A stretch of DNA of 64,000 nt from Escherichia coli (GTDB lineage: Bacteria > Pseudomonadota > Gammaproteobacteria > Enterobacterales > Enterobacteriaceae), in assembly GCF_024502345.1 (NCBI RefSeq), contig NZ_JALDNN010000001.1; one strand, 5' to 3'. Below are positions 26,753-45,749 of this stretch, piece by piece. A program made the position numbers and the translations under genes. The notes below the pieces were generated by a model. That model saw nothing but the letters and a program-made list of their open reading frames with translations, had not been told where the DNA came from and did no database searches. Each line of letters opens with the position of its first letter. Position 1 is the stretch's first letter.

Positions 26753-29011
26753 TCAAATCAATCCTGCCAGATGGAACTCTTCATATAACCGTTTTGGCGT
26801 CAGCGGCAGTGTATTGATTGCAACACCGGTAGCCATCTTCACCGCGTTACGAATAGCAGCGGCAACAGGAATTATTGGTGGCTCACCCAGTGACTTATGT
26901 CCGTATGCGGATTGCGGCTCATTGATTTCGACGAACGCGCTTTCCAGTTGTGGCAGATCCGGCATGGTCGGCATTTTGTAATCCAGCAGATTGGGGTTAC
27001 GGACCACGCCGCTTTTAGCATCGATGATCATCTCTTCAAATAGCGCCCAGCCAATGCCCATTCCCATTCCGCCGTGTACCTGACCTTCTGCCAGCAGTGG
27101 ATTAAGAATATGCCCTGAATCATGAACGTTGAGGATGCGGTTGATGGTGACTTTGCACAGCGCAATATCGACCGTCAGATCAACAAAGGTACAGCCAAAC
27201 GCCGGTGGGTTAGTGGTGGTTTTGATGGAGCTTTCAGCAGAGAGCTGCCCGCCGCGTTCAGGGTGGTAGAAAGCGTCCATCGCCAAATCTTTTAACGACA
27301 TTAACGGCTCTTCCGGTCGTTCAACCAGCACGATATGGCCTTTTATCAGGGTCAGATTCATCGCTGACTGATGTAGCATGACTGCGGCGTGAGCGATGAT
27401 TTTCTCTTTTAATAATAGTGCCGCACTGCGCAGCGCAGGCGCGGCAACATAGCTCTGGCGTGAGGCAAATGCGCCGGGATCGAACGGCGTAACGTCGGTA
27501 TCTTGAGTTGAAATAACGCGAACGTCGCTGACCGGAACCCCCACGGTTTCTGCCACCATTTGCGAGAAGACGGTGTCGGCACCCTGACCGATTTCCGTCG
27601 CGCCGCTTTGCACGTTGATGGTTCCATCCTGATTCATCAGAAGGCGCGCGCCTGCTATTTCTACGCCGACAGGCCAGGTGTTAGAGGTGTAGCTAAAACA
27701 GGCGACGCCAACGCCGCGGCGCAAATTGCCTTGCTGGTTCTGGCATTCTGCACGGCGTTTTTCCCATTCAAAGATTTTCCGGCCTTTTTCAAGACACTCC
27801 GGCAACCCTGCGCTGTAAATACGTTTGCCCGTGAGCGGATTAGCATCTCCTTCGCGGGCGGCGTTGCGTAAACGAATTTCAACAGGATCAATACCTAACG
27901 CTGTCGCGGCGTCATCAAGCATAGACTCAACGGCAAATACGACTTGTGGCGCGCCATAACCACGCATCGCACCAGCCGAGGGGAGGTTGGTATAGCAGGT
28001 CTTTGAACTGTAAGCGTAGGCACAACGAGGATAAAGGTAAGCGACTTTATTCCCCCCCGCAGAAGCGATGGAGTGCCCGTGAGATGCATAAGCGCCGGTG
28101 TTAGACAGAACATCCAGACTATAACCTTTCAATGTTCCGTCGCGGTTCACGCCCATTTGCCCGTCAATGGTAAAAGCGTGGCGGGTACGGGTTGCGAGGA
28201 AACACTCTTCACGGCTAAGGGAAACTTTCACCGGAATGCCGCCAAGCTTGCTGGTCAGGAATGCCGCCATTGGCTCTTCCAGTACATCCTGTTTATTACC
28301 AAAACCGCCACCGACAAATGGTTTGATGACTCGTACGCATGACCAGGGAATATCCAGCGCCTGACCAACCACGCGGCGAACAATGTGCGGGATCTGGGTG
28401 CTGGAAACGATGGTAATTCGCGAGTCATCCTCCATCCACGCCAGCGATGTTACGCTTTCCATGTGACAATGTTGAATAACGGGGGTCTGATAGTGCCCCT
28501 GTACCTGGTAGTCGGCGGCATCGATTGTTTGTTGGACATTACCCGTCGACATCGTGCTTTGTTTCAGTAAATTGCCACCGTTATGGATTGGTGCAGCGTC
28601 TTCTGCCAGCGCCGCTTCTGGCGTGGTGATAACGGGTAATTCTTGCCACTCAATGCTGACCAATTGCGCCGCTTTTTCTGCCGTGAGTTCATCGCGGGCC
28701 ACGACGATGGCAACGGCGTCACCATGATGACGAACATGGCGAGTTAGCAGTGCGCGATCGGCGGTATCGCGCTTGTTTTCGTCAAGTGTCCAGGCATGCC
28801 CAGCTGTAGCGAATGGAATATCAGGCACATCTTCCCAGGTAAAAATCGCCAGTACGCCCGGCAAACTTCTGGCTTGTTCATCATTAATACTTACGGCATA
28901 ACCATGTGCGATAGGGCTACGTACATATTTCGCATAACACATGCCCGCCATAACATAATCGTCAGTATATCGTGCCCGCCCGGTGACCTTAGCAATGGCA
29001 TCGACGCGCAT
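26753..29011 (-). CDS. xdhA: xanthine dehydrogenase molybdopterin-binding subunit
   Basis: ORF 26753..29050 trimmed to MRVDAIAKVTGRARY...; 752 aa; molybdopterin hydroxylase motifs (GGGFGNK). Confidence 0.85.
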   Translation of the reverse strand: MRVDAIAKVTGRARYTDDYVMAGMCYAKYVRSPIAHGYAVSINDEQARSLPGVLAIFTWEDVPDIPFATAGHAWTLDENKRDTADRALLTRHVRHHGDAVAIVVARDELTAEKAAQLVSIEWQELPVITTPEAALAEDAAPIHNGGNLLKQSTMSTGNVQQTIDAADYQVQGHYQTPVIQHCHMESVTSLAWMEDDSRITIVSSTQIPHIVRRVVGQALDIPWSCVRVIKPFVGGGFGNKQDVLEEPMAAFLTSKLGGIPVKVSLSREECFLATRTRHAFTIDGQMGVNRDGTLKGYSLDVLSNTGAYASHGHSIASAGGNKVAYLYPRCAYAYSSKTCYTNLPSAGAMRGYGAPQVVFAVESMLDDAATALGIDPVEIRLRNAAREGDANPLTGKRIYSAGLPECLEKGRKIFEWEKRRAECQNQQGNLRRGVGVACFSYTSNTWPVGVEIAGARLLMNQDGTINVQSGATEIGQGADTVFSQMVAETVGVPVSDVRVISTQDTDVTPFDPGAFASRQSYVAAPALRSAALLLKEKIIAHAAVMLHQSAMNLTLIKGHIVLVERPEEPLMSLKDLAMDAFYHPERGGQLSAESSIKTTTNPPAFGCTFVDLTVDIALCKVTINRILNVHDSGHILNPLLAEGQVHGGMGMGIGWALFEEMIIDAKSGVVRNPNLLDYKMPTMPDLPQLESAFVEINEPQSAYGHKSLGEPPIIPVAAAIRNAVKMATGVAINTLPLTPKRLYEEFHLAGLI

Positions 29012-29105
29012 GCATGATTCACCCGTAGCGGTTGCTTCCCGCGCTTCCATAGAAATCCCCTCGATTTGAACATTTGGTTCTTATGGCAAAGATTTAGTCT
29101 AAGCA

Positions 29106-29122
29106 GGCAAGATTTACGCCAG
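29106..29122 (-). promoter_or_regulatory. candidate sigma-54 (-24/-12) promoter upstream of xdhABC
   Basis: minus-strand sequence CTGGCGTAAATCTTGCC: matches YTGGCACG-N4-TTGCW at the GG and TTGC core positions; about 95 bp upstream of the xdhA start. Confidence 0.35.
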
Positions 29123-29464
29123 AAACGACGATAAGCGTTAGGGGAGGTAGGAAGTGTGATGACGTTAAAAAAACACAGATATGATACGAAACAGGACTCT
29201 GAATAGGGGCAGTGATACGTATCAATATGAGTGGCGATAAAATCAATGTGATAAATTGGGATTATTACGCATCAGGATGGGAAATAGGGTAAAAAGTCAG
29301 GAACTTCGATACCTCTACAGCGAATATTTTGCTGATGATACTTCCCTTTGCCAAATGAAATTAACCTCTTTCTCTATTACCACGTTTTTCCAGAAGCAAG
29401 AGATTGGGTATCAAGAGGCTGGCTGCTATGATAAGGCGTCTTGTTTTTTAAGCGAGGAAAGATT

Positions 29465-30220
29465 TTGAGTGCGGGACGCCTGAATAAAAAATCTCTGGGT
29501 ATCGTGATGTTGTTATCGGTTGGACTGCTTTTGGCGGGCTGTTCGGGTAGCAAATCATCCGATACAGGAACGTATTCCGGCTCCGTTTACACCGTGAAAC
29601 GGGGGGATACGCTATATCGTATTTCGCGCACCACGGGAACCAGCGTAAAAGAACTGGCGCGACTGAACGGCATTTCCCCCCCTTACACCATTGAAGTTGG
29701 TCAGAAACTAAAACTGGGTGGGGCGAAAAGTAGCAGTAGTACACGTAAATCAACCGCCAAATCAACGACCAAAACCGCATCGGTTACACCGTCATCAGCG
29801 GTACCGAAATCTTCCTGGCCGCCAGTAGGGCAACGTTGTTGGTTATGGCCAACGACAGGGAAAGTTATCATGCCGTATTCGACAGCAGATGGCGGCAATA
29901 AAGGGATTGATATCTCAGCTCCACGGGGTACACCTATTTACGCCGCGGGTGCAGGAAAGGTGGTGTATGTGGGCAACCAGCTGCGTGGCTACGGTAATCT
30001 CATCATGATTAAACACAGTGAAGATTACATTACGGCTTACGCCCATAATGACACGATGCTGGTAAATAATGGGCAAAGCGTGAAGGCTGGGCAAAAAATC
30101 GCCACTATGGGGAGCACGGATGCGGCATCTGTTCGCCTGCATTTCCAGATTCGTTACCGTGCAACGGCAATTGATCCGCTACGTTACTTGCCGCCGCAGG
30201 GCAGCAAGCCAAAATGCTGA
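29465..30220 (+). CDS. ygeR: LysM-domain / M23-peptidase-family lipoprotein
   Basis: lipobox LLAGCSG after a signal peptide, LysM motif (YTVKRGDTLYRISRTTG) and C-terminal M23 domain; the ORF track starts at TTG 29441, a TTG at 29465 is the more likely start. Confidence 0.8.
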   Translation: MSAGRLNKKSLGIVMLLSVGLLLAGCSGSKSSDTGTYSGSVYTVKRGDTLYRISRTTGTSVKELARLNGISPPYTIEVGQKLKLGGAKSSSSTRKSTAKSTTKTASVTPSSAVPKSSWPPVGQRCWLWPTTGKVIMPYSTADGGNKGIDISAPRGTPIYAAGAGKVVYVGNQLRGYGNLIMIKHSEDYITAYAHNDTMLVNNGQSVKAGQKIATMGSTDAASVRLHFQIRYRATAIDPLRYLPPQGSKPKC

Positions 30221-30298
30221 TGGCGAATTAATCAGCAGTCAGCAGCGCGGCACTTGCTAAGGAGAGCGTAAGGTTTATAATGCCTTACGCATCTCGAA

Positions 30299-30372
30299 GC
30301 GGGCGTAGTTCAATGGTAGAACGAGAGCTTCCCAAGCTCTATACGAGGGTTCGATTCCCTTCGCCCGCTCCA
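30299..30372 (+). tRNA. glyU: tRNA-Gly (anticodon CCC)
   Basis: 74-nt sequence GCGGGCGTAGTTCAATGGTAGAACGAGAGCTTCCCAAGCTCTATACGAGGGTTCGATTCCCTTCGCCCGCTCCA with cloverleaf and CCC anticodon. Confidence 0.95.
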
Positions 30373-30563
30373 ATTTATCTTCACCTGATCAATCTGCCAT
30401 TTTTGCTGTATCTGATTTTCTATATTATCTTAATTCAATCGCTTCAGGCTTTTCGCAATCGCTGTAACACTTCCCCATTTTTTTGTAAATAAAAAGCGTT
30501 TACGCAATGCAATCCTTTTGTAACAACCCAGGTAAAACACCTTATTTTCAAGTTGTTAAATAA

Positions 30564-31139
30564 GTGGTTATCTACGCTTTTAACAAACGATTGATGGAAT
30601 ATTTTATGAAAGGGAAATCTGCATTAACTCTTCTGCTCGCTGGTATATTTTCGTGCGGCACATGCCAGGCGACAGGGGCAGAAGTGACGAGTGAATCTGT
30701 ATTTAACATTCTTAATTCCACGGGGCAGCAACAGATAAAAGTTATTTATCGTTAAATCCAGATAAGTACCCTAATTATCGTCTTCTGATTCACTCAGCCA
30801 AATTAAAAAATGAAATAAAGAGCCACTATACCAAAGACGAAATTCAAGGGTTGTTAACATTAACAGAAAACACACGAAAGTTAACGTTGACGGAGAAACC
30901 CTGGGGAACATTTATTCTTGCTTCTACTTTCGAAGATGACAAAACAGCGGCAGAAACCCACTATGATGGTGTCTGGCTGAGGGATAGTTTATGGGGCTAT
31001 ATGGCATTAGTATCAGATCAGGGAAATAGTGTAGCCGCAAAAAAGGTTCTGCTCACCCTGTGGGATTATATGTCTACGCCCGACCAGATTAAGCGGATGC
31101 AGGACGTCATTAGCAACCCCAAACGACTGGATGGAGTTC
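30564..31139 (+). pseudogene. frameshifted, 3'-truncated island gene remnant (signal-peptide protein, possibly ygeP/ygeQ-like), cut by the IS3 end
   Basis: two ORFs in different frames (30564..30755 with a signal peptide; 30851..31156) in AT-rich DNA next to glyU; the second ORF runs into the IS3 terminal repeat at 31140. Confidence 0.4.
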
Positions 31140-31169
31140 TGATCCTACCCACGTAATATGGACACAGGC

Positions 31170-32036
31170 CTAAGCGAGGTTCTGGTTTTCAAATTGTTCC
31201 GGACTGAGGCCGCCACACCAACTGTGCCGCCGCCACCGATTGTAATCACATTCGATATAATTAAACACCGTTGCCCGCATTATTTCCCGGCTGATAAAGT
31301 GTTCTCCATGGATACATTCCACTTTCAGCGAATGAAAGAAGCTTTCCACGCAGGCATTATCGTAGCAGCAACCTTTTGCGCTCATACTTCCACGCAGATT
31401 ATGCCGCTTCAGTTGCGCCTGATAATCTGCTGAACAGTACTGGCCTCCACGGTCCGTGTGAACGATAACGTTCCGGGGCCTCTTACGCCGCCACAGCGCC
31501 ATCTGCAGGGCATCGCAGGCCAGTTGCGCCGTCATGCGTGGCGACATTGACCAGCCAATAACGGCACGTGACCACAGGTCAATGACCACTGCCAGATACA
31601 GCCAGCCTTCATCTGTACGTAAGTACGTGATGTCTCCTGCCCACTTCTGGTTCGGGCCACTGGCGTAAAAATCCTGCTCCAACAGATTTTCTGACACAGG
31701 CAGGCCGTGTGCGCGGTAGCTGACCGGGCTGAACTTCCGGGAGGCCTTTGCCCTCAGTCCCTGACGGCGCAGGCTTGCCGCCACGGTTTTTACGTTAAAG
31801 GGGTAACCCTGAGCACGCAGTTCATCCGTCAGGCGTGGGGCACCGTAACGCTGTTTTGACCGGGTAAAAGCCGCGAGGACAACGCTGTCGCAGTGTTGGC
31901 GGAACTGCTGACGCGTGCTTATCCTTGTCCGCCGCTGACACCACGTATACCAGCCGCTGCGGGCCACCCGGAGCACGCGGCACATTGCTTTGATGCTGAA
32001 CTCAGCCTGATGTTTTTCAATAAAGACATACTTCAT
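31170..32036 (-). CDS. insF: IS3 transposase OrfB (DDE integrase domain)
   Basis: 288 aa ORF matching IS3 InsF ([32 protein letters not shown]...). Confidence 0.9.
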
Positions 32037-32062
32037 TTCAGGCGCTTCGCGAAGTATGTCGC

Positions 32063-33283
32063 TGTAGATTCAATTGGTCAACGCAACAGTTATGTGAAAA
32101 CATGGGGTTGCGGAGGTTTTTTGAATGAGACGAACATTTACAGCAGAGGAAAAAGCCTCTGTTTTTGAACTATGGAAGAACGGAACAGGCTTCAGTGAAA
32201 TAGCGAATATCCTGGGTTCAAAACCCGGAACGATCTTCACTATGTTAAGGGATACTGGCGGCATAAAACCCCATGAGCGTAAGCGGGCTGTAGCTCACCT
32301 GACACTGTCTGAGCGCGAGGAGATACGAGCTGGTTTGTCAGCCAAAATGAGCATTCGTGCGATAGCTACTGCGCTGAATCGCAGTCCTTCGACGATCTCA
32401 CGTGAAGTTCAGCGTAATCGGGGCAGACGCTATTACAAAGCTGTTGATGCTAATAACCGAGCCAACAGAATGGCGAAAAGGCCAAAACCGTGCTTACTGG
32501 ATCAAAATTTACCATTGCGAAAGCTTGTTCTGGAAAAGCTGGAGATGAAATGGTCTCCAGAGCAAATATCAGGATGGTTAAGGCGAACAAAACCACGTCA
32601 AAAAACGCTGCGAATATCACCTGAGACAATTTATAAAACGCTGTACTTTCGTAGCCGTGAAGCGCTACACCACCTGAATATACAGCATCTGCGACGGTCG
32701 CATAGCCTTCGCCATGGCAGGCGTCATACCCGCAAAGGCGAAAGAGGTACGATTAACATAGTGAACGGAACACCAATTCACGAACGTTCCCGAAATATCG
32801 ATAACAGACGCTCTCTGGGGCATTGGGAGGGCGATTTAGTCTCAGGTACAAAAAACTCTCATATAGCCACACTTGTAGACCGAAAATCACGTTATACGAT
32901 CATCCTTAGACTCAGGGGCAAAGATTCTGTCTCAGTAAATCAGGCTCTTACCGACAAATTCCTGAGTTTACCGTCAGAACTCAGAAAATCACTGACATGG
33001 GACAGAGGAATGGAACTGGCCAGACATCTAGAATTTACTGTCAGCACCGGCGTTAAAGTTTACTTCTGCGATCCTCAGAGTCCTTGGCAGCGGGGAACAA
33101 ATGAGAACACAAATGGGCTAATTCGGCAGTACTTTCCTAAAAAGACATGTCTTGCCCAATATACTCAACATGAACTAGATCTGGTTGCTGCTCAGCTAAA
33201 CAACAGACCGAGAAAGACACTGAAGTTCAAAACACCGAAAGAGATAATTGAAAGGGGTGTTGCATTGACAGATTGAATCTACA
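32063..33283 (+). mobile_element. IS30 insertion sequence (1221 bp) with 2-bp GC target-site duplication
   Basis: terminal repeats TGTAGATTCAATTGGTCAACGC (32063) and its complement ending ...GATTGAATCTACA (33283); flanking GC at 32061..32062 and 33284..33285. Confidence 0.9.
32125..33276 (+). CDS. insI: IS30 transposase
   Basis: 383 aa ORF (MRRTFTAEEKASVFELWKNGTGFSEIANILG...), DDE transposase. Confidence 0.9.
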   Translation: MRRTFTAEEKASVFELWKNGTGFSEIANILGSKPGTIFTMLRDTGGIKPHERKRAVAHLTLSEREEIRAGLSAKMSIRAIATALNRSPSTISREVQRNRGRRYYKAVDANNRANRMAKRPKPCLLDQNLPLRKLVLEKLEMKWSPEQISGWLRRTKPRQKTLRISPETIYKTLYFRSREALHHLNIQHLRRSHSLRHGRRHTRKGERGTINIVNGTPIHERSRNIDNRRSLGHWEGDLVSGTKNSHIATLVDRKSRYTIILRLRGKDSVSVNQALTDKFLSLPSELRKSLTWDRGMELARHLEFTVSTGVKVYFCDPQSPWQRGTNENTNGLIRQYFPKKTCLAQYTQHELDLVAAQLNNRPRKTLKFKTPKEIIERGVALTD

Positions 33284-33555
33284 GCGGCCTTTTGGAGGAT
33301 AGCCAGCTCTTCATCCCGTTCTGCCAGCTGGCGTTTGAGACGTGCAATCTCGGTAGACATCTCCAGTTCACGTTCAGAAGACGTCTGCTGATTTTGCTGT
33401 TTACTGCGCCAGTTGTAGAGCTGTGATTCATACAGGCTGAGTTCACGGGCTGCGGCAGTAACACCGATGCGTTCAGCAAGCTTCAGGGCTTCACTGCGAA
33501 ATTCAGGCGAATGCTGTTTACGGGGTTTTTTACTGGTTGATACTGTTTTTGTCAT
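33284..33555 (-). pseudogene. insE: IS3 OrfA (InsE), 3'-disrupted by the IS30 insertion
   Basis: translation MTKTVSTSKKPRKQHSPEFRSEALKLAERIGV...AILQKAA, then reading continues into the IS30 end. Confidence 0.7.
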
Positions 33556-33620
33556 GTGAGTCACCTCTGACTGAGAGTTTACTCACTTAGCCGCGTGTCC
33601 ACTATTGCTGGGTAAGATCA

Positions 33621-34231
33621 TAGATGCTACGGATATCCATATCCAGAACTTCAGCAATCTGATATGGATTATAACCAGAAACCATATACCCCATTATGGT
33701 GAATTCCATCTGAGTTAATGTGTTACCTCTGGTAAATGATAAATAACGACCAATAAATAGTTGTCTGATCTTTTCATTGGCAACATCAAGACCATCATCA
33801 TTATATATGACAGCAGATATTGCTGAGTTGTGTTTTCGCCAGTAATTAGCTAACGATTGCATATTGCGGTCGCTGACTAAAACAATCCCCATGTCAGTAC
33901 TTGCAAGATAGTCAATCCAGTCTTTTTCAAGGAATAGACGTAAAAAACTTACTGAAAAATCGACAAAAATATATCCGCTTAATCTCGCATTGTGGTTTTT
34001 AGTTAAGATACCTTCTACCACACCACGATTAAAATATGAACTTTCTTCGGGCCACATACAAAAACACGAGTTTGCGCAGTACTGCAAACGCGGTGACTCT
34101 TCTGGCATTATTTGGCAATGCATTGAGCAACTATTGCATGTAAGACTTTTATAACGACTACAAAGCCCCATGTTAAGAACCTCCCTATCCGTATATAATT
34201 GCATAATTTCATTGGTGATTGATGATGTCAA
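33621..34231 (-). pseudogene. LuxR-type HTH regulator (yqeH-like), C-terminally truncated by the IS3 insertion
   Basis: ORF 33602..34231 has a GerE/LuxR-like HTH at its C-terminus (LTQMEFTIMGYMVSGYNPYQIAEVLDMDIRSI); its last 6 codons and stop are supplied by IS3 sequence. Confidence 0.5.
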
Positions 34232-34630
34232 TACACCATGATTTTGTAATTTTGCTGGGAAAAATTGCGATTAATCTGTATTTGCTATAATTCTGATTAA
34301 GACATTTTAAAATGCATTTCTCGTTATTAAATATGATTATGTTTCACTGATTTAATCTTACCTGGTTGAGGGTGGTTCAGATAACTATCTCATGGTATGA
34401 GAATATCTATATCGCAAATTGTTTTTGAATGACCAGAAGATATCTTGCGAATCTAAGTTATGCATCTTAAATGGTCTTATTTAAGATGTTCAGATCTCTT
34501 TGTGTGTTTAACTAACTGATAATACTAGGATATGATGAGAGAAGTGATAGGGCGGAATAATAACGAATGAACATTATGAAAACTGGAATGGTTCAAAATT
34601 GTAGCAATTTTGAACCATTCACAATGGATA

Positions 34631-34864
34631 TCAGCTAAAGAACATTACCGATACGCACAGGATACCCACGATCAGCGTAATCAGATTTCCGATGGAACGC
34701 CAGGGTTTAAGCGCCGGGATCAGATACGTTGACAACGTAGGCATGATGAAAAGTATCATGGCAATGAGCGGGCCGCTGATCGCGTAAATCATCGAAATCG
34801 CGTTCGGGTTAATGCAACAAACAATGAAGGTGATCAGCGATACCAACATAATTGATAGTGCGCG
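34631..34864 (-). pseudogene. 3' fragment of a membrane transporter gene (yqeG-like), 5' part replaced by the IS903-family element
   Basis: 78 codons of hydrophobic C-terminal sequence ending at a stop codon; the reading frame upstream runs straight into the IS terminal repeat. Confidence 0.5.
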
Positions 34865-35922
34865 GGGCTTTGTTGAATAAATCGAACTTTTGCTGAGTTG
34901 AAGGATCAGATCACGTATCTTCCCGACAACGCAGACCGTTCCGTGGCAAAGCAAAAGTTCAAAATCACCAACTGGCCCACCTACAATAAAGCCCTCATCA
35001 ACCGTGGCTCCATAACTTTCTGGCTGGATGATGAAGCTATTCAGGCCTGGTATGAGTCAGCAACACCTTCTTCACGAGGCAGACCTCAGCGCTATTCTGA
35101 CCTTGCCATCACGACTGTGCTGGTCATTAAACGCGTATTCAGGCTGACCCTGCGCGCTGCGCAGGGCTTTATTGATTCCATTTTTTCTCTGATGAACGTT
35201 CCGCTACGCTGCCCGGATTACAGCTGTGTCAGCAGGCGGGCAAAGTCGGTTAATGTCAGTTTCAAAACGCCCACCCGGGGTGAAATCGCACACCTGGTAA
35301 TTGATTCCACCGGGCTGAAGGTCTTCGGTGAAGGCGAGTGGAAAGTCAAAAAGCATGGCCAGGAACGCCGCCGTATCTGGCGTAAGCTGCATCTCGCCGT
35401 TGACAGTAAAACACATGAAATCATCTGCGCTGACCTGTCGCTGAACAACGTTACGGACTCAGAGGCCTTCCCCGGGTTAATCCGGCAAACCCACCGGAAA
35501 ATCAGGTCAGCCGCCGCCGATGGCGCTTACGATACCCGGCTATGTCACGATGAACTGCGGCGTAAGAAAATCAGCGCGCTTATCCCTCCCCGAAAAGGTG
35601 CGGGTTACTGGCCCGGTGAATATGCAGACCGTAACCGTGCAGTGGCTAATCAGCGAATGACCGGGAGTAATGCGCGGTGGAAATGGACAACAGATTACAA
35701 CCGTCGCTCGATAGCGGAAACGGCGATGTACCGGGTAAAACAGCTGTTCGGGGGTTCACTGACACTGCGTGACTACGATGGTCAGGTTGCAGAGGCTATG
35801 GCCCTGGTACGAGCGCTGAACAAAATGACGAAAGCAGGTATGCCTGAAAGCGTGCGTATTGCCTGAAAACACAACCCGCTACGGGGGAGACTTACCCGAA
35901 ATCTGATTTATTCAACAAAGCC
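34865..35922 (+). mobile_element. IS903-group (IS5 family) insertion sequence, 1058 bp, no target-site duplication
   Basis: 18-bp terminal inverted repeats GGCTTTGTTGAATAAATC at both ends (34865 and, as complement, ending 35922); flanking 9-mers differ (TAGTGGCGG vs CATTCTTCT). Confidence 0.9.
34898..35866 (+). CDS. IS903-family DDE transposase
   Basis: 322 aa ORF containing ...AADGAYDTRLCHDELRRKKISALIPPRKGAGYWPGEY...; the true start may be an internal Met. Confidence 0.85.
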   Translation: MKDQITYLPDNADRSVAKQKFKITNWPTYNKALINRGSITFWLDDEAIQAWYESATPSSRGRPQRYSDLAITTVLVIKRVFRLTLRAAQGFIDSIFSLMNVPLRCPDYSCVSRRAKSVNVSFKTPTRGEIAHLVIDSTGLKVFGEGEWKVKKHGQERRRIWRKLHLAVDSKTHEIICADLSLNNVTDSEAFPGLIRQTHRKIRSAAADGAYDTRLCHDELRRKKISALIPPRKGAGYWPGEYADRNRAVANQRMTGSNARWKWTTDYNRRSIAETAMYRVKQLFGGSLTLRDYDGQVAEAMALVRALNKMTKAGMPESVRIA

Positions 35923-35942
35923 CATTCTTCTTACTTTTATGA

Positions 35943-35966
35943 CCCTGCCGCATGGCAGGGTTTTTT
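35943..35966 (+). terminator. intrinsic terminator, presumably the remnant 3' end of the deleted upstream gene (kduD in the reference arrangement)
   Basis: stem CCCTGCCGCATGGCAGGG followed by TTTTTT, 20 bp after the IS right end. Confidence 0.5.
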
Positions 35967-36133
35967 ATATCTGTAGATCATCATAATCCATATCATGGTT
36001 ATGAAATAATCCATATCAATTATCAATTAATGAACTTTATGAATTTTATCTGCTGTAAAATTAGGTGATTAATAATAATATCAATAATTCAACTTAATTT
36101 GAAAATTGGAATATCCATCACATAACGACATGT

Positions 36134-36194
36134 CGTAGCAATTTAATCCATATTTATGCTGTTTCCGACCTGACACCTGTGTGAGTTGTTCACG
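36134..36194 (+). promoter_or_regulatory. araE promoter region with AraC-type and CRP-type binding sites
   Basis: TAGCAATTTAATCCATA resembles the araI1 half-site TAGCATTTTTATCCATA; TGTGAGTTGTTCACG matches the CRP consensus TGTGA-N6-TCACA; 40 to 100 bp upstream of araE. Confidence 0.45.
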
Positions 36195-36231
36195 TATTTT
36201 TTCACTATGTCTTACTCTCTGCTGGCAGGAA

Positions 36232-37653
36232 AAAATGGTTACTATCAATACGGAATCTGCTTTAACGCCACGTTCTTTGCGGGATACGCGGCGTATGAAT
36301 ATGTTTGTTTCGGTAGCTGCTGCGGTCGCAGGATTGTTATTTGGTCTTGATATCGGCGTAATCGCCGGAGCGTTGCCGTTCATTACCGATCACTTTGTGC
36401 TGACCAGTCGTTTGCAGGAATGGGTGGTTAGTAGCATGATGCTCGGTGCAGCAATTGGTGCGCTGTTTAATGGTTGGCTGTCGTTCCGCCTGGGGCGTAA
36501 ATACAGCCTGATGGCGGGGGCCATCCTGTTTGTACTCGGTTCTATAGGGTCCGCTTTTGCGACCAGCGTAGAGATGTTAATCGCCGCTCGTGTGGTGCTG
36601 GGCATTGCTGTCGGGATCGCGTCTTACACCGCTCCTCTGTATCTTTCTGAAATGGCAAGTGAAAACGTTCGCGGTAAGATGATCAGTATGTACCAGTTGA
36701 TGGTCACACTCGGCATCGTGCTGGCGTTTTTATCCGATACAGCGTTCAGTTATAGCGGTAACTGGCGCGCAATGTTGGGGGTTCTTGCTTTACCAGCAGT
36801 TCTGCTGATTATTCTGGTGGTCTTCCTGCCAAATAGCCCGCGCTGGCTGGCGGAAAAGGGGCGTCATATTGAGGCGGAAGAAGTATTGCGTATGCTGCGC
36901 GATACGTCGGAAAAAGCGCGAGAAGAACTCAACGAAATTCGTGAAAGCCTGAAGTTAAAACAGGGCGGTTGGGCACTGTTTAAGATCAACCGTAACGTCC
37001 GTCGTGCTGTGTTTCTCGGTATGTTGTTGCAGGCGATGCAGCAGTTTACCGGTATGAACATCATCATGTACTACGCGCCGCGTATCTTCAAAATGGCGGG
37101 CTTTACGACCACAGAACAACAGATGATTGCGACTCTGGTCGTAGGGCTGACCTTTATGTTCGCCACCTTTATTGCGGTGTTTACGGTAGATAAAGCAGGG
37201 CGTAAACCGGCTCTGAAAATTGGTTTCAGCGTGATGGCGTTAGGCACTCTGGTGCTGGGCTATTGCCTGATGCAGTTTGATAACGGTACGGCTTCCAGTG
37301 GCTTGTCCTGGCTCTCTGTTGGCATGACGATGATGTGTATTGCCGGTTATGCGATGAGCGCCGCGCCAGTGGTGTGGATCCTGTGCTCTGAAATTCAGCC
37401 GCTGAAATGCCGCGATTTCGGTATTACCTGTTCGACCACCACGAACTGGGTGTCGAATATGATTATCGGCGCGACCTTCCTGACGCTGCTCGACAGCATT
37501 GGCGCTGCCGGTACGTTCTGGCTCTACACTGCGCTGAACATTGCGTTTGTGGGCATCACTTTCTGGCTCATTCCGGAAACCAAAAATGTCACGCTGGAAC
37601 ATATCGAACGCAAACTGATGGCAGGCGAGAAGTTGAGAAATATCGGCATCTGA
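36232..37653 (+). CDS. araE: arabinose:H+ symporter (MFS sugar porter)
   Basis: 472 aa; [50 protein letters not shown]...; the ORF track's extended start 36181 is rejected. Confidence 0.9.
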
Positions 37654-40786: not shown

Positions 40787-41818
40787 TTAGTCGCTGGTTG
40801 CATGATGACTGGCCTCCAGCGACGGAGTTGACACTGAATGGCGACGTACCAGCGTCGGACTAAAGACATTAGTGATTTCCGGGAGAGGGCGATTATCCGC
40901 CAGCGCCAAAGCCAGTTCGGCAGCCTGGGTCGCCATCGTCACGATTGGGTAACGCACGGTGGTCAGGCGCGGGCGCACATAGCGTGACACCAGCACATCA
41001 TCAAAGCCAATTAACGAAATTTCGCCCGGTACATCAATACCATTATCATTGAGAACGCCCATCGCACCCGCCGCCATTGAATCGTTATAACAGGCTACCG
41101 CAGTGAAATTTCTTCCTCGTCCCAAAAGCTCGGTCATTGCCTGTTCGCCGCCGCTTTCGTCTGGTTCGCCAAATGTCACCAGCCGATCATTGGCCGGAAT
41201 ACCACTTTCAGCAAGGGCATCGTAATACCCTTGCAGACGATCTTCGGCGTCAGAAATAGAGTGGTTAGAGCACAGATAACCAATGCGGGTATGACCTTGC
41301 TGAATTAAATGACGCGTTGCCAGCCAGGCACCGTAACGATCGTCAAGAGCAATACAACGGTTTTCAAAGCCAGGCAGGATACGGTTGATCAGCACCATAC
41401 CGGGCATTTGTTTCATTAATGAGGCTAAATCGGCATCCGGGATCATTTTGGCATGGACGACCAACGCAGCACAGCGATGGCGGATCAGTTGCTCAATAGC
41501 CTGACGCTCTTTTTGTTCGTTGTGGTAACCGTTGCCAATCAATAAGAAATTACCGGTGTGATAAGCCACCTGTTCGACCGCTTTCACCATTGCACCGAAA
41601 AACGGATCGGAAACATCACCAACGACCAGACCGACCGTTTCAGTGGTCTGCTGCGCCAGCGCACGGGCGTTGGCGTTCGGGTGATAGCTAAGAGACTCCA
41701 TTGCACTATGCACAGCCAGCCGGGACGCTTCGCTGGCTTTGGGTGAATTATTAATGACGCGGGAAACGGTGGCGACTGAAACGCCTGCCAGTCGGGCTAC
41801 ATCCTTTATGGTCGCCAT
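40787..41818 (-). CDS. galR: galactose repressor (LacI family)
   Basis: 343 aa; N-terminal HTH MATIKDVARLAGVSVATVSRVINN. Confidence 0.9.
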   Translation of the reverse strand: MATIKDVARLAGVSVATVSRVINNSPKASEASRLAVHSAMESLSYHPNANARALAQQTTETVGLVVGDVSDPFFGAMVKAVEQVAYHTGNFLLIGNGYHNEQKERQAIEQLIRHRCAALVVHAKMIPDADLASLMKQMPGMVLINRILPGFENRCIALDDRYGAWLATRHLIQQGHTRIGYLCSNHSISDAEDRLQGYYDALAESGIPANDRLVTFGEPDESGGEQAMTELLGRGRNFTAVACYNDSMAAGAMGVLNDNGIDVPGEISLIGFDDVLVSRYVRPRLTTVRYPIVTMATQAAELALALADNRPLPEITNVFSPTLVRRHSVSTPSLEASHHATSD

Positions 41819-42031
41819 GAAAATACCTTAGTGGGTAAACGCTTACATTCTTTCAGTGTTACGGAAAACGCCCGTTGGTTCAAGGGGCGGCGTGTTTTCA
41901 TCGTGGGAATGTGAGCCAAACGCAAATAAGTAAGACAAAAAAAGAGATTGCAAACCTTTGGTTACACTTTGCGAAACGCTGTTGCGATTGACCGCTGGTG
42001 GCGTTTGGCTTCAGGTTGCTAAAGTGGTGAT

Positions 42032-42114
42032 CCCAGAGGTATTGATAGGTGAAGTCAACTTCGGGTTGAGCACATGAATTACACCAGCCTGCGCAGATGC
42101 GCAGGTTTTTTTTT
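42032..42114 (+). ncRNA. omrB: small regulatory RNA OmrB
   Basis: CCCAGAGGTATTGATAGGTGAAGTCAACTTCGGG...CCTGCGCAGATGCGCAGG followed by a T-run; shares conserved 5' and 3' ends with the adjacent OmrA copy. Confidence 0.85.
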
Positions 42115-42228
42115 GCCGGTCATCAAACTGTAACAGTAACCGACAATTTACACACCTCGTTGCATTTCCCTTCATTCCTTTGCGTTTTCTCGCTGGCGAA
42201 GAGTCGTCGTGCAGACCACAATCAAGAT

Positions 42229-42316
42229 CCCAGAGGTATTGATTGGTGAGATTATTCGGTACGCTCTTCGTACCCTGTCTCTTGCACCAACCTGCGCGGA
42301 TGCGCAGGTTTTTTTT
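42229..42316 (+). ncRNA. omrA: small regulatory RNA OmrA
   Basis: CCCAGAGGTATTGATTGGTGAGATTATTCGGTACGC...CCTGCGCGGATGCGCAGG followed by a T-run; terminator hairpin plus poly-U. Confidence 0.85.
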
Positions 42317-42382
42317 CGCACCTAATTTACTGTCGCTCGCGTTCTTTATCTCGTGTAATCTCCCTCCATTCGCTTTTACTGA

Positions 42383-45749
<3,367 letters not shown>

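Follow-up and report, generated by a model that had tools for sequence, protein, structure and literature searches.

Tandem omrB and omrA small RNA genes in the galR–aas spacer of an Escherichia coli contig

The spacer between galR and aas in a 64,000-nt stretch of an Escherichia coli contig (NZ_JALDNN010000001.1; this whole stretch is hereafter termed the window) contains two similar units overlapped by several short open reading frames (ORFs). This raises the question of whether the spacer encodes small RNAs (sRNAs), a small protein or only the remnants of a duplication. A first-pass annotation, made from the letters of the DNA, had read the two units as the sRNAs OmrB and OmrA. Our analysis leaves hardly any room for doubt that the spacer holds two independent sRNA genes, omrB and omrA, which lie in tandem on the same strand and are paralogues from an old duplication within Enterobacterales. 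Nothing substantial counts against this identity. The omrB–omrA locus is a textbook one; every respect in which it was tested here is already known, and no new biology is involved. The region is laid out as follows, with lysA and lplT lying beyond galR and aas.

40787–41818, minus strand: galR, the upstream flank, divergent from omrB
41918–42031, plus strand: omrB promoter (PomrB, −114 to −1), with −10 element TAAAGT at 42020–42025 and −12T at 42020; identical to K-12
42032–42113, plus strand: omrB (formerly rygB), 82-nt Hfq-dependent sRNA; RF00079 match of 86.1 bits; identical to K-12 b4445
42032–42052, plus strand: OmrB 5′ seed region, CCCAGAGGUAUUGAUAGGUGA; nucleotides 1–9/10 are the published pairing site for ompT, cirA and ompR
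42086–42114, plus strand: OmrB intrinsic terminator, 9-bp stem, AGAU loop and a 9-T run at 42106–42114 (8 T in K-12)
42115–42228, plus strand: omrA promoter (PomrA, −114 to −1), with −10 element CACAAT at 42217–42222 (−12 to −7) and −12C at 42217
42229–42316, plus strand: omrA (formerly rygA), 88-nt Hfq-dependent sRNA; RF00079 match of 96.6 bits; identical to K-12 b4444
42229–42249, plus strand: OmrA 5′ seed region, CCCAGAGGUAUUGAUUGGUGA (PMC2588501)
42289–42316, plus strand: OmrA intrinsic terminator, 9-bp stem, GGAU loop and an 8-T run at 42309–42316
42404–44563, plus strand: aas, the downstream flank, on the same strand as the sRNAs

The identity of the two units was assessed with the Rfam covariance model of the OmrA-B family (RF00079), the check that the first-pass annotation had proposed. 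The model matched the plus strand at 42229–42316 with 96.6 bits (E = 6e-18) and at 42032–42113 with 86.1 bits (E = 2e-15), against a gathering score of 40 bits. Both matches are full length, covering model positions 1–87 of 87 without truncation. When the whole window was scanned with Rfam 15 at gathering thresholds, only three matches were obtained, namely these two and a tRNA at 30299–30369. The order proposed earlier, with OmrB followed by OmrA on the plus strand between galR (minus) and aas (plus), was correct, and the predicted unit length of about 85 nt compares with measured lengths of 82 and 88 nt.

The K-12 MG1655 annotation places the ncRNA genes omrA (b4444, 88 nt) and omrB (b4445, 82 nt) in the same spacer. 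The bodies of both RNAs are 100% identical to those of K-12 and show the same aas–galR synteny, bearing out the names given to them. Across the spacer, 3 of 585 positions differ from K-12, none of them within the annotated RNAs: a C for T at 41888 (−144 of omrB), a T-run longer by one base in the OmrB terminator (9 versus 8 T; 42106–42114) and an A for T at 42127 (−102 of omrA), just upstream of a conserved TGTAACA. RNA sequence, gene order, strand relation, the −12C/−12T bases and the box B2 positions are all shared with K-12; PomrB is identical over −114 to −1, and PomrA has a single SNP at −102. These three differences are trivial, and no functional consequence is expected from them. By their identity to the K-12 RNAs, omrB and omrA would be expressed in the present strain and act there as they do in K-12; control by OmpR, sigma-S and RstA, dependence on Hfq and RNase E, and pairing in vivo are all drawn from published work on RNAs and promoters of identical sequence.

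The 1-kb galR–omrBA–aas region is present in 5423 of 5426 complete E. coli genomes, and the surrounding kilobase is 100% identical to that of several complete E. coli chromosomes. The kilobase is missing from the other 3 of the 5426 genomes, and two places matching it lie on plasmids. One candidate for a collinear chromosome, strain 14EC033, is 100% identical in the 1-kb region; it was rejected since the two sequences differ around 31–36 kb and are ~98.8% identical overall.

The two RNAs are similar at both ends and differ in the middle. Their 5′ ends, CCCAGAGGTATTGATAGGTGA in OmrB (42032–42052) and CCCAGAGGTATTGATTGGTGA in OmrA (42229–42249), agree at 20 of 21 nucleotides, as expected from the near-identity described in the first-pass annotation. 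The RF00079 5′ pattern, CCCAGAGGUAUUGAU(N)GGUGA, occurs exactly at 42032 and 42229, where the predicted minimum-free-energy folds leave it unpaired. A search for the 5′ motif that tolerated three mismatches found only these two matches in the 64-kb window, and none is expected from 100 shuffles. A repeat search returned direct repeats of 24 nt at 96% identity and 38 nt at 89% identity, with spacings of 197 and 203 nt. The 38-nt repeat is the 3′ module, comprising CACC, the terminator hairpin and the U-run. Its 32-nt pattern, CACCA(N)CCTGCGC(N)GATGCGCAGG followed by T8, was also found twice in the window, with none expected, at 42082–42113 in OmrB (CACCAGCCTGCGCAGATGCGCAGG plus T8) and at 42285–42316 in OmrA (CACCAACCTGCGCGGATGCGCAGG plus T8). 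The two spacings are unequal because the central parts differ in length, with 26 nt in OmrB (42053–42078) and 32 nt in OmrA (42250–42281). These central parts diverge in both sequence and length, in agreement with the earlier description. Both terminator hairpins score as intrinsic terminators, with nine pairs, six of them G–C, and a 4-nt loop. The hairpins had been called identical and followed by a T-run; their stems are indeed the same, and the loops are one base apart (AGAT in OmrB versus GGAT in OmrA), a difference already covered by the open position ('.') in the motif given.

Both RNAs are predicted to fold stably. The fold energy is −26.6 kcal/mol for OmrB (z = −2.9) and −29.5 kcal/mol for OmrA (z = −2.7), each relative to dinucleotide shuffles. 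The predicted unpaired 5′ end spans ~15 nt in OmrA and fewer in the OmrB model. According to the proposed architecture, each RNA would begin with ~15 free nucleotides, continue into a central hairpin that GGUG/CACC closes, and end in a terminator hairpin and its U-tail, which together would serve as the Hfq-binding module. In both RNAs the 3′ module is of the class I sRNA type, in which CACC, closing the central domain, precedes a G+C-rich terminator hairpin with its U-run.

Aligning 146 homologous units from Enterobacterales showed 99.9% pairing in the terminator helix, where 4 of 9 pairs carry compensatory double changes (54 cells). This level of covariation was reached by 0 of 500 shuffles, and structures slid by 1–3 columns were only 24–52% paired. 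The GGUG/CACC helix is invariant in the same alignment. The central hairpin of OmrA, GGUACG...CGUACC, is unlike that of OmrB, and its pairing survives in relatives through changes on both sides of the stem, for example GUACG/CGUAC to GUGUG/CACAC. RNAalifold on MAFFT alignments yielded no consensus for the OmrB central hairpin, because the variable part aligns poorly. That the 5′ end is invariant among the homologues gathered here is partly a circular result, as the loci were retrieved with that very pattern.

Two properties put forward in the first-pass annotation, Hfq dependence and base-pairing between the 5′ end and outer-membrane-protein mRNAs, are established experimentally for identical sequences, and so is control by OmpR (PMC2588501, PMC5175337, PMC12692685). 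Pairing with ompT, cirA and ompR was proven in vivo by compensatory mutations that place the site at nucleotides 1–9/10, and Hfq and RNase E dependence as well as feedback on ompR-envZ were shown for the K-12 RNAs (PMC2588501). We compared the first 30 nt of OmrA and OmrB with the translation initiation regions of K-12 ompT, cirA and ompR. Nucleotides 1–9 of both RNAs pair in silico with ompT +12 to +20 (ACUUCUGGG) and with ompR −19 to −11 (ACCUUUGGG). These ompT and ompR duplexes reach −20 to −22 kcal/mol, values equalled or exceeded by only 10–18 of 500 shuffled seeds. The cirA duplex, by this crude energy measure, was not distinguishable from shuffles (179–180 of 500 equal). Within the window, 9-mers complementary to the seed are not enriched (8 versus 8.5 expected, two of the eight being the sRNA genes themselves), so no local target is suggested.

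Further published targets comprise fecA, fepA, csgD, flhDC, dgcM, flgM and btuB, and paralogue-specific roles, such as the sponging of RydC by OmrB, have also been reported (PMC12692685, PMC6443205, PMC7549644, PMC11162775). As a working model, the shared 5′ end, assisted by Hfq, would base-pair with many mRNAs in or close to their translation initiation regions. Such pairing would block translation and lead to RNase E-dependent decay, and by repressing ompR-envZ the sRNAs would feed back negatively on the activator of their own genes.

Each gene would be driven by its own activator-dependent promoter and ended by its own intrinsic terminator. An alignment from 41–43 related tandem loci revealed conserved blocks upstream of both RNAs. 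In PomrB these are AACCTTTGGTTACACTTTGCG at about −77 to −58 and GCTGTTGCGATTG at −54 to −42; in PomrA, three to four blocks comprise TGTAACA at −99 to −93, ACACCTCGTTGCATTTCC at about −77 to −60 and ATTCCTTTGCGTTTTCTC..CTGG at −55 to −33. The blocks thus differ between PomrA and PomrB, matching the published picture (PMC13425233). The published box B2 positions of PomrB are present within the first of its two blocks, with T−75 at 41957 and A−68 at 41964; the mutations T−75C and A−68G in box B2 abolish multicopy RstAB activation and strongly reduce OmpR activation (PMC13425233). The −12C is reported to make omrA sigma-S-dependent, and omrB has −12T (PMC12692685).

In vitro, OmpR-P activates both promoters in −114 constructs, and truncation of the omrA promoter to −60 leads to loss of OmpR activation (PMC5175337). 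OmpR ChIP signal has been observed at omrA and omrB, and OmpR has no sharp, usable binding consensus (PMC3945435). Judged by sequence, the promoter DNA examined here corresponds, save for −102 of PomrA, to the K-12 DNA that OmpR-P activates in vitro, and from its −12C and −12T bases omrA would depend on sigma-S and omrB would be of the sigma-70 type. A sigma-70 consensus scan of 41700–42500 found no promoter upstream of either RNA. This is expected where activator-dependent promoters have poor −35 hexamers; with the published −10 elements in place, we do not hold it against transcription. In the same spacer, an imperfect palindrome, GTGGGTAAACGCTTACAT, occupies 41831–41848, which on the strand of galR is ~13–30 nt ahead of its start codon. 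The palindrome looks like an operator of the GalR/GalS (LacI-family) type, and we presume that it might be an autoregulatory site.

The divergent centres and promoters may provide some paralogue-specific targets and inputs. By analogy only, the pair can be likened to RyhB-1/RyhB-2 of Salmonella, another paralogous pair with conserved seed and terminator, divergent remainder and different transcriptional inputs. RyhB-1 and RyhB-2 are sibling Hfq-dependent enterobacterial sRNAs whose regulons overlap but are not identical. The RyhB pair and the RNAs described here, which are OmrA-B members, come from separate sequence families, with regulators and targets of their own.

Two other readings of the spacer and one of its strain-specific bases have to be weighed against this identification. 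The OmrB terminator with its 9 T abuts the omrA promoter. Either the longer T-run or the A at −102 could alter OmrA or OmrB levels, as strain-specific regulatory drift in an IS-rich E. coli/Shigella lineage; we consider this very unlikely. Translation of an overlapping short ORF is less likely still. Six ORFs of 38–78 aa, found on both strands, overlap the RNAs or their promoters, and one or more of them (for example 42097–42249 plus, 42011–42175 minus or 42243–42479 plus) might encode a real small protein, which would make this a dual-function locus. Across 35 related tandem loci, the ORF at 42097–42249 is intact in 6 and that at 41958–42077 in 4, but the other four are intact in none. Pfam searches gave no match for any of the six, and all are unannotated in K-12 and in one PGAP record. 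Moreover, substitutions within the ORFs show no bias toward any codon position (for example, 436/430/433), unlike the third-position excess in the first 87 nt of aas, which served as a control (297/173/562). Coverage in tblastn told nothing about coding, as it also reflects nucleotide conservation that stems from the RNAs and promoters; intactness and the codon-position test were used instead. With that conservation explained by the RNAs and promoters, a coding function appears extremely improbable, in keeping with the initial view that these ORFs are spurious.

The repeats might instead be non-functional duplication remnants, either pseudo-sRNAs or mere terminator or REP-like elements. The two units are intergenic repeats, RefSeq PGAP records carry no annotation of either, and OmrB is reported to be lost in some Shigella boydii (PMC12692685). 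Such remnants, however, are hard to reconcile with two full-length covariance-model matches at more than twice the gathering score, with promoters conserved across genera and terminator stems that covary, or with retention of the locus in 5423 of 5426 E. coli genomes. Furthermore, both units are identical to RNAs of demonstrated expression and function (PMC2588501). We therefore regard decay to remnants as scarcely credible and retain the reading of omrB and omrA as two functional sRNA genes.

The distribution of the locus was surveyed with a motif scan in which each bacterial and archaeal species was represented by a single genome. At least 120 loci carry the 5′ motif, and all of them are from Enterobacterales among the matches listed. 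Among these listed matches, 50 loci have a tandem pair 188–307 nt apart, 43 have a single copy with room on both sides, 8 have two copies ~2 kb apart, and 19 lie too near the locus edge to call. Homologues of galR and/or aas commonly adjoin the Omr loci in many genera, again among the matches listed. These counts agree with the published description of a conserved tandem arrangement across Enterobacteriaceae, with just one copy retained in some species (PMC13425233).

In Pantoea and Erwinia, the Omr copies are ~2 kb apart rather than ~200 nt (loci L016, L029, L043, L061, L065, L074, L089 and L117). The first copy in these genera is short (72–81 nt), and the second often has the variant seed end GGTGT. 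In Pantoea stewartii (L016:130-7154), a gene for a 579-aa class-B penicillin-binding protein, FtsI-like with PBP_dimer and Transpeptidase domains, lies between the two copies, and a molybdopterin oxidoreductase gene lies between galR and the first copy.

The main value of these results lies in annotation quality. In the PGAP RefSeq record NZ_CP024147.1, the interval from galR to aas is empty of features; the curated K-12 record NC_000913.3 lists both omrA and omrB there. Standard E. coli RefSeq annotation appears to miss the two sRNAs, and mechanical ORF calling lays six spurious ORFs over them. The correct labels are omrB for 42032–42113 and omrA for 42229–42316, with the overlapping ORFs suppressed. 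The genes so omitted have roles in outer-membrane remodelling, iron-siderophore receptors, motility, biofilm and EnvZ–OmpR feedback.

Elsewhere in the window, the best 25-kb identity to any of the 5426 E. coli genomes is 99.5%, and the interval 29000–37000 was not found in one place in any of these complete genomes. A nested insertion-sequence cluster occupies 30500–35950, between tRNA-Gly(CCC) (30299–30369) and the yqeF/kduI side. It includes an IS3-family element, with orfB at 31170–32036 (minus) and an orfA-like HTH_Tnp_1 ORF at 33196–33564 (minus), and this element is interrupted by an IS30-like one (inverted repeats at 32060–32088 and 33258–33286; 383-aa transposase). The cluster also contains an IS903-like element, whose inverted repeats lie at 34865–34898 and 35890–35923 and which carries a 322-aa DDE transposase.
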